A stretch of 64,000 bases of DNA from the sequence record PQ438391.1. One strand, given 5' to 3'. The DNA comes from Escherichia phage vB_Eco_T-01. Position numbers and translations under genes: made by a program. Below, piece by piece: positions 55,518 to 57,097 of this stretch (positions are counted from its first letter, which is position 1; the number at the start of each line of letters is the position of its first letter). The notes under the pieces are model-generated. The model was not told the DNA's origin. It made no database searches and saw only the letters and a program-made list of their open reading frames with translations.

Positions 55518-56258
55518 ATGATTAGTGACTCTATGACAGTTGAAGAAATCCGTCTTCATTTGGGGCTTGCATTAAAAGAAAAAGATTTCGTAGTTGATAA
55601 AACTGGCGTTAAAACTATTGAAATTATTGGCGCATCATTTGTAGCAGATGAACCGTTTATTTTTGGCGCTCTTAATGATGAATACATTCAGCGTGAACTT
55701 GAATGGTATAAATCTAAAAGCTTGTTTGTTAAAGATATTCCAGGTGAAACGCCGAAGATTTGGCAACAAGTAGCATCTTCTAAAGGCGAAATTAACTCAA
55801 ATTATGGCTGGGCTATTTGGTCAGAAGATAACTATGCCCAGTATGATATGTGTTTAGCTGAACTTGGTCAAAATCCTGATTCTCGACGTGGTATCATGAT
55901 TTATACTCGTCCATCCATGCAATTTGACTACAATAAAGATGGTATGTCAGATTTCATGTGTACTAATACAGTACAGTACCTGATTCGTGATAAGAAAGTC
56001 AATGCAGTAGTAAGCATGCGCTCAAATGACGTGGTCTTCGGATTCCGTAATGATTATGCATGGCAAAAATACGTATTAGATAAATTAGTATCTGATTTGA
56101 ATGCAGGCGATTCAACTCGTCAGTATAAAGCAGGTTCTATTATATGGAATGTCGGAAGTCTTCATGTATATTCTCGTCATTTTTACTTGGTTGATCATTG
56201 GTGGAATACTGGCGAAACTCATATTGTGAAAAAAGACTATAAAGGTGAGTGGAAATGA
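55518..56258 (+). CDS. 42: dCMP hydroxymethylase gp42
   Basis: 246 aa; thymidylate-synthase-like fold; size and synteny. Confidence 0.9.
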   Translation: MISDSMTVEEIRLHLGLALKEKDFVVDKTGVKTIEIIGASFVADEPFIFGALNDEYIQRELEWYKSKSLFVKDIPGETPKIWQQVASSKGEINSNYGWAIWSEDNYAQYDMCLAELGQNPDSRRGIMIYTRPSMQFDYNKDGMSDFMCTNTVQYLIRDKKVNAVVSMRSNDVVFGFRNDYAWQKYVLDKLVSDLNAGDSTRQYKAGSIIWNVGSLHVYSRHFYLVDHWWNTGETHIVKKDYKGEWK

Positions 56259-57097
56259 TTCAATTCGTAATTCCAAGTTATCAGCGTGTCGGGGCAGTTT
56301 CTGCCCTTGATATGTTTCCGACTGATTATGAACCCCATATTGTAGTGCGTGAACATGAAGAAAAAGCTTATCATGACGCCTATGGGTCTAGAGCTAAAAT
56401 TATAACTATTCCTGATGATGTAAACGGAATTGCCGGTACTCGTAAAGCAATTACTGATATGTATGCAGGTCAACGAATATGGATGATTGACGATGATACT
56501 ACTATTCGTATGAGTTCAATGCGAAAAAGAGATGATCGTCGTTGTGTGGATAAAGTCAATCAATTGACTCGTGAACAGTTCTATGAATTGATTCAATATG
56601 TTGAGGATGCCATGGATTGTGGGTATTATCATGGCCATGCTCGTCTACCTATTTTTAAAATTACTTCATCTTGGGGTAATTATCGTGAAAATTCATATGG
56701 ATTCACGAATACATGGTATGACCTCGGAAAACTTACGACAGAACAAATTGGGTATGGAAAAATTGATTTATGCGAAGATATGTATGCATTTCTCAATTTA
56801 ATTAATCAAGGTTATCCGCATTTGGCCTTGTTCAAATATCTAGTTGTATCTGGAAAAGCACAAGCTCCTGGCGGGTGCAGTTCAATTCGTAGTAATTCTA
56901 AACATAATAGAGCGCTTGAGCAGATTAATAGAGAGTTTCCAGAGCAAGCTCGTTGGAAAACTTCTAATATTGAAAAACGAAAATCGTTGGGTGAAGAAGA
57001 CGAGCCATTAAAGGTTCTTCGCATGTGTGTTTCGCGCAAAGAAAAATCAGAAGCATTTCATAAGTTTAATGCTATTCATCCGATAGCAGTTGATTAA
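56249..57097 (+). CDS. hypothetical protein at the bgt locus (possible alternative DNA glucosyltransferase)
   Basis: 282 aa between 42 and uvsX where T4 carries bgt; contains an IWMIDDD acidic motif reminiscent of glycosyltransferase DxD. Confidence 0.4.
   Translation: MEMIQFVIPSYQRVGAVSALDMFPTDYEPHIVVREHEEKAYHDAYGSRAKIITIPDDVNGIAGTRKAITDMYAGQRIWMIDDDTTIRMSSMRKRDDRRCVDKVNQLTREQFYELIQYVEDAMDCGYYHGHARLPIFKITSSWGNYRENSYGFTNTWYDLGKLTTEQIGYGKIDLCEDMYAFLNLINQGYPHLALFKYLVVSGKAQAPGGCSSIRSNSKHNRALEQINREFPEQARWKTSNIEKRKSLGEEDEPLKVLRMCVSRKEKSEAFHKFNAIHPIAVD

Follow-up and report, generated by a model that had tools for sequence, protein, structure and literature searches.

A very probable T2/T6-type beta-glucosyl-HMC-alpha-glucosyltransferase gene (ba-gt) between gene 42 and uvsX of Escherichia phage vB_Eco_T-01

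We analyzed a window of 64,000 nucleotides from Escherichia phage vB_Eco_T-01 (sequence record PQ438391.1), in which three genes follow one another on the plus strand. Gene 42 (55518..56258) codes for a dCMP hydroxymethylase of 246 aa (Pfam Thymidylat_synt, E 1.1e-15), and gp42 is annotated with this function at the syntenic place in RB18 and T6. The downstream flank is uvsX (57175..58356), whose product of 393 aa matches Pfam T4_UVSX_C (E 4.7e-39) and RecA. Between them, at 56255..57097, lies a gene that we assign, by orthology and by matches to PHROG 842 and PF20691, to ba-gt (also ggt), which specifies a beta-glucosyl-HMC-alpha-glucosyltransferase of the TAGT family. The order 42 - ba-gt - uvsX is also annotated in RB18, T6, T2 and vB_Eco_Some. 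The corresponding interval of T4 is occupied by b-gt and segA. An earlier reading, made from the letters of the window alone (the sequence-only reading), had placed a single gene of 282 aa in this T4 bgt/segA slot; the layout holds, and the length is likely to be 280 aa instead. Upstream, between imm and gene 42, is an ORF (55361-55510) for a very hydrophobic product of 49 aa, which the RB51 record names 42.1 and the vB_Eco_Some record "phage protein"; the corresponding gap in T4 has no annotated gene. In GenBank records, gene 42 is often named thymidylate synthase.

The ORF listing of the window gives the gene as 56249..57097 (+), with 282 aa counted from a GTG codon. The likely start is, rather, the ATG at 56255, which yields 280 aa; the GTG at 56249 adds two residues (ME). 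We take 56255 as the start because its ATG overlaps the TGA stop codon of gene 42 as ATGA, as read from the sequence, because the Shine-Dalgarno-like AAAGGTGAG (56241..56249, +) lies 5 nt upstream of it within the 3' end of gene 42, and because 280 aa is the length annotated in related records (RB18, T2 and vB_Eco_Some). We regard AAAGGTGAG as a putative Shine-Dalgarno sequence for ba-gt, whose translation is probably coupled to that of gene 42. The GTG start is less likely, given that it would bring the start codon into overlap with the Shine-Dalgarno-like sequence and that related records give the shorter form. The CC31 homologue is annotated with the extra "ME", unlike the 280-aa records.

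Between 55300 and 57300, a scan for sigma-70 promoters stayed at chance level (14 promoter-like sites vs 9.8 expected) and so carries no information on regulation. A terminator scan of the same interval returned one terminator-like site. This is a G+C-rich hairpin, GGGGCAGTTTCTGCCCT (56291-56307). The hairpin lies inside ba-gt at its 5' end, has a T-rich stretch behind it and is identical in T2, T6 and RB18. Because a single match in 2 kb compares with 0.8 expected by chance, the hairpin may have no meaning. In the 77-nt spacer ahead of uvsX, positions 57098-57121 read TGCCTAAA, then 10 nt (ATTTATTGTG), then TATAAT. This element has no -35 hexamer and is absent from the list of the sigma-70 scan. 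In its letters it resembles a MotA-dependent middle promoter of T4, the MotA box of T4 being TGCTTtA; the T4 spacing of ~11 nt fits if the box here is the 7-nt TGCCTAA.

The protein encoded at 56255..57097 is closely matched in the classical T-even phages. It is identical to the T2 protein (AP018813) at 277 of 280 positions, to the T6 protein of NC_054907 at 276 of 280, and to that of T6 MH550421 at 258 of 261 over the annotated part. The protein of vB_Eco_Some has a single difference, A14T (279/280). PHROG 842, "beta-glucosyl-HMC-alpha-glucosyltransferase", was matched over the whole length (E 3e-89), and Pfam PF20691 (TET-associated glycosyltransferase, TAGT) scored 41.3 bits against a gathering threshold of 27.5, with profile positions 2-205 of 205 aligned to residues 5-209 of the 282-aa form. 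NCBIfam offers a model neither for the ba-gt protein nor for a-gt. Used alone as the query, the protein gave 11 homologues in a word-indexed search, and a second search with an alignment gave 97; all 95 of these 97 that have a Pfam entry on record carry PF20691. By tblastn, the protein was matched in 688 deposited phage records, so this is a conserved gene and not a chance ORF. Identity was at least 90% in 472 of the 688, mostly Tequatrovirus, and 60-80% in 203, which are phages of Klebsiella, Enterobacter, Salmonella and related hosts. At the nucleotide level, RB18 shares 98.7% identity with the 2-kb locus, and 474 phage records have matches that span 80% or more of this query. The surrounding 39001-64000 is ~98% identical to several Tequatrovirus genomes, with 97.9% over 24.6 kb for vB_Eco_Some. 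The same gene is present in RB18, RB51, RB68, CM8, vB_Eco_Some and several hundred other Tequatrovirus records. It is thus a known gene, in a known place and of a very common T-even phage type, and nothing about it is new.

Public records name this gene inconsistently; in GenBank it appears as "b-gt", "putative beta-glucosyltransferase", "glucosyl transferase", "glycosyltransferase like family 2" or "hypothetical protein". The T2 record AP018813 contains many plainly wrong transferred names; for example, a-gt is called "N-acetylmuramoyl-L-alanine amidase", and gp41 is called "major capsid protein".

Residue conservation was assessed in an alignment of 95 TAGT sequences. Eight residues are invariant (D79, D80, D81, D175, G186, G206, G207 and R212), four are nearly invariant (R11, R63, H126 and L180), and all twelve are intact in the window protein. 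The acidic IWMIDDD motif that the sequence-only reading had singled out is indeed present, at residues 75-81 of the 280-aa form (56477..56497, +), where strand beta-4 (E74-78) is followed by D79-D81. These three aspartates (56489-56497) are kept also in six phage homologues, down to 24% identity. They are the predicted catalytic DxD motif, for binding of metal and UDP-sugar, in the canonical place after the fourth strand of the model. Near the N terminus, IPSYQR (residues 6-11; 56270..56287, +) includes a strand, E3-7 in the model, and R11 is conserved in at least 90% of the 95 sequences. In GT-A enzymes generally, an IPTYN-like strand has a nucleotide-binding role. IPSYQR resembles the GT2 "IPTYN" strand, and we propose a putative role of this kind for it. 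Within CED (residues 173-175; 56771..56779, +), the invariant D175 is a candidate catalytic base by analogy to the "TED" Asp of inverting GT2 enzymes. The segment GGCSSIR (56870..56890, +) supplies the invariant columns G206-G207 and R212.

A structure model built from the 95 sequences predicts a single GT-A (nucleotide-diphospho-sugar transferase) domain; it replaced a single-sequence AlphaFold2 model (pLDDT 39.2), which was not used for conclusions. The prediction of a glycosyltransferase fold, which the sequence-only reading had proposed as a check, therefore came out in favor of a transferase. The closest folds of the model are mostly inverting GT2-type enzymes, and inversion by enzymes of this type gives a beta linkage. 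Such neighbors fit an enzyme that would form a beta linkage with UDP-alpha-glucose as donor, so the model suggests an inverting mechanism with that outcome. Sequence searches of the PDB, with the single protein and with a 6-sequence profile, gave chance matches alone, the best being to haemoglobin (E 0.36), and the TAGT family thus has no solved relative that is detectable by sequence. For the T6 protein, the GT-A fold and a sister relation to GT2 were already published on the basis of an AlphaFold3 model (PMC13216743), and our model reproduces the GT-A result.

The partner expected for a second-sugar transferase is also present. DNA alpha-glucosyltransferase is encoded by a-gt at 43062..44264 (+), with 364 of 400 residues (91%) identical to T4 a-gt, in agreement with the sequence-only reading. 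With T4 b-gt as the query, tblastn against the 64-kb window (of ~167 kb), the syntenic slot included, found chance matches with a best E of 6.6; T4 segA likewise gave chance matches in the 64-kb window (best E 2.9). Related complete genomes are reported to be without a T4-type bgt (PMC13390438, PMC13216743).

Published work provides the chemistry. In T2 and T6, which have the alpha-GT only, the enzyme glucosylates HMC that is already alpha-glucosylated, yielding a gentiobiosyl base (PMC13216743; bioRxiv 10.64898/2026.02.25.707755). T6 with ba-gt deleted has only alpha-glucosyl-HMC and is more sensitive to Brig1 (PMC11078745). HPLC/MS of Durham-collection Tequatrovirus phages that have alpha-GT and TAGT and are without beta-GT found 5-hmdC, alpha-glucosyl-mdC and alpha-gentiobiosyl-mdC, with the beta form absent; the same study describes the TAGT position as syntenic with that of T4 beta-GT (PMC13390438). 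[quoted passage not shown]

We conclude, with little doubt, that 56255-57097 is the Tequatrovirus ba-gt (ggt), encoding a TAGT-family beta-glucosyl-HMC-alpha-glucosyltransferase with a predicted GT-A fold and DxD motif, and that it points to DNA modification of the T2/T6 type. Orthology, synteny, fold, intact invariant residues, the presence of a-gt and the absence of bgt from the window are what we found here; the literature supplies the chemistry, as well as the effect that the second glucose has against glycosylase-type defenses. No result in this analysis contradicted the assignment. In the proposed pathway, gp42 would make hydroxymethyl-dCMP, which would be incorporated into phage DNA. 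The alpha-glucosyltransferase (43062-44264) would then alpha-link a first glucose to the hydroxymethyl group, and the ba-gt enzyme would add a second glucose from UDP-glucose, beta-1,6 onto the first, to give gentiobiosyl-hydroxymethylcytosine. The resulting DNA would contain unglucosylated HMC, alpha-glucosyl-HMC and gentiobiosyl-HMC, and no beta-glucosyl-HMC. We infer both the activity of this allele and the extent of modification by analogy. Because the enzyme differs by one residue from that of vB_Eco_Some, heavily di-glucosylated, T6-like DNA is our best guess, and the gentiobiosyl-HMC fraction is probably about two-thirds, as in that phage. The extent is not something that can be read from the gene alone, because the T2 and T6 enzymes are ~99% identical and the contents are ~5% in T2 vs ~72% in T6, ~14-fold apart (PMC13390438; bioRxiv 10.64898/2026.02.25.707755).

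A TAGT-family transferase could have another specificity, using a different sugar donor or accepting beta-glucosyl-HMC or bare HMC. Karamvirus CC31 and Serratia phage PS2 have a TAGT homologue together with a beta-GT instead of an alpha-GT, in the order 42-TAGT-bgt-uvsX, and in many genomes TAGT homologues stand alone (PMC13216743); because of such occurrences, specificity may vary across the family. Homologues of the CC31/PS2 type, however, are just 49-66% identical to the window protein, whereas the proteins of T2, T6 and vB_Eco_Some differ from it at 1-4 positions, all outside the invariant set. The 64-kb window, moreover, has an alpha-GT and no beta-GT, and gentiobiosyl-HMC was measured in vB_Eco_Some, the phage of the 279/280-identical enzyme (PMC13390438), all of which makes a deviating specificity very improbable here. 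The same measurement bears on whether the allele might be inactive or weakly active, with DNA that is essentially alpha-glucosylated only. Lesions in ba-gt do occur in deposited laboratory genomes, namely a TAG at codon 10 in T6 MH550421 and a DDD motif minus one Asp in T6 NC_054907, and all T2 records have R11H, at a nearly invariant position, in a phage with only ~5% gentiobiosyl-HMC (bioRxiv 10.64898/2026.02.25.707755). The window allele is full length, however, and keeps R11 and the three Asp together with all remaining invariant residues, and its near-identical counterpart serves a phage with ~two-thirds gentiobiosyl-HMC, so that a defective allele is highly unlikely.

The gene might also be thought a functional replacement of T4 beta-glucosyltransferase, placing a single beta-glucose directly on HMC, since it sits in the same genomic position and several GenBank records give it b-gt-type names. 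BLASTP against T4 beta-GT, however, found no similarity (best E 2.2 over 8 residues), and the model has a GT-A fold, in contrast to the GT-B fold of T4 alpha-GT and beta-GT (PMC13216743). T6 that is deprived of ba-gt keeps alpha-glucosyl-HMC only (PMC11078745), and no beta-glucosyl form was detected in phages with ba-gt (PMC13390438). We reject a function like that of T4 b-gt on the absent BLASTP similarity together with the GT-A model, and we give this replacement practically no credence. The sequence-only reading had instead suggested a second-sugar transferase as in T2/T6 and had proposed comparison with both T4 bgt and the T2/T6 enzyme. Both comparisons bear it out: the protein is unrelated to the former and 99% identical to the latter, and the PHROG 842 and PF20691 matches agree.

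The gene is useful mainly as an indicator of the sugar pattern, which would be of the T2/T6 type, as opposed to the T4 type (alpha and beta mono-glucosyl). This pattern affects sensitivity to defenses that read modified cytosine. Gentiobiosyl-HMC resists Brig1, a glycosylase of alpha-glucosyl-HMC; BapA leaves gentiobiosyl-HMC glucosylated, and GmrSD-type enzymes still target it (PMC13216743; PMC11078745; bioRxiv 10.64898/2026.02.25.707755). The assignment can therefore serve phage annotation or the choice of phages for host-range work, and it brings no new biology.

The closest likeness is to ba-gt of T2 and T6 (ggt, g-gt), with which the window gene shares 99% identity, length, the position between 42 and uvsX, the ATGA junction and the a-gt partner. 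Unlike the T2, T6 and vB_Eco_Some proteins, the window protein carries one to four conservative substitutions; unlike T2, it has Arg at position 11; and it is free of the changes seen in the two deposited T6 records, an amber at codon 10 and the loss of an Asp codon. It resembles the PF20691 family in the full-length match over the cut-off, the GT-A fold and the invariant DDD. The TAGT family takes its name from genomic association with TET/JBP dioxygenases, on which membership in the Pfam family does not depend. Compared with TAGT proteins generally, the hydroxymethyl group here comes from gp42, acting at the nucleotide level, and the enzyme would act on a sugar that the base already carries, not on the base (PMC13216743). 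The CC31 and PS2 homologues belong to the same family and likewise lie downstream of gene 42, and they are followed by a b-gt gene; the acceptor there is presumed to be beta-glucosyl-HMC. Both T4 beta-GT and the ba-gt enzyme modify DNA by transferring glucose from UDP-glucose in beta linkage, and their genes share a genomic slot. T4 b-gt nevertheless has no sequence similarity to ba-gt, is GT-B, and acts on bare HMC, not on alpha-glucosyl-HMC. The bacterial GT2-type GT-A enzymes TarS, TarP, K4CP, WrtF, AvpGT and SpsA are just 8-16% identical to the window protein, and their acceptors are polysaccharide, teichoic-acid or lipid-linked, not DNA.

Comparison of the deposited alleles yielded several observations on other phages. 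T6 is the classical heavily gentiobiosylated phage, and both of its public genomes carry different, probably damaging changes in ggt. In MH550421, codon 10 is TAG, not CAG (~4950-4952 on the minus strand of the retrieved locus, corresponding to window 56282-56284), and ggt is annotated from Met20 with 261 aa. This TAG occurs in MH550421 alone among 473 records that match a 96-nt query, and may have arisen by mutation in the stock or by a sequencing error. In NC_054907/AP018814, a GAC codon of the invariant DDD is missing, which leaves ATTGATGAT and 279 aa; the deletion is at ~1145 of the retrieved locus, corresponding to window 56489-56491. The RefSeq protein YP_010067197.1 from this record, with the Asp codon missing, served as the TAGT reference in PMC13216743.

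At position 11, all seven T2 records and SV76 have His (in AP018813, codon 11 of EcT2_00043), where the window has Arg (56285-56287). As a tentative and rather doubtful lead from these alleles, R11H might weaken the T2 enzyme and so explain ~5% gentiobiosyl-HMC in T2 vs ~72% in T6, which would predict T6-like heavy di-glucosylation in the window phage. The lead bears on T2 more than on the window phage.

Finally, TAGT and b-gt genes adjoin each other between gene 42 and uvsX in both CC31 (1767-5734 of the retrieved locus) and Serratia PS2 (732-5718 of the retrieved locus). Because the two genes lie side by side in these phages, the states of T4 (bgt only) and of T2, T6 and the window (TAGT only) could be alternative losses from a two-gene locus, and not a replacement. 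PS2 also has an extra, unannotated ORF of 308 aa between gene 42 and the TAGT gene.
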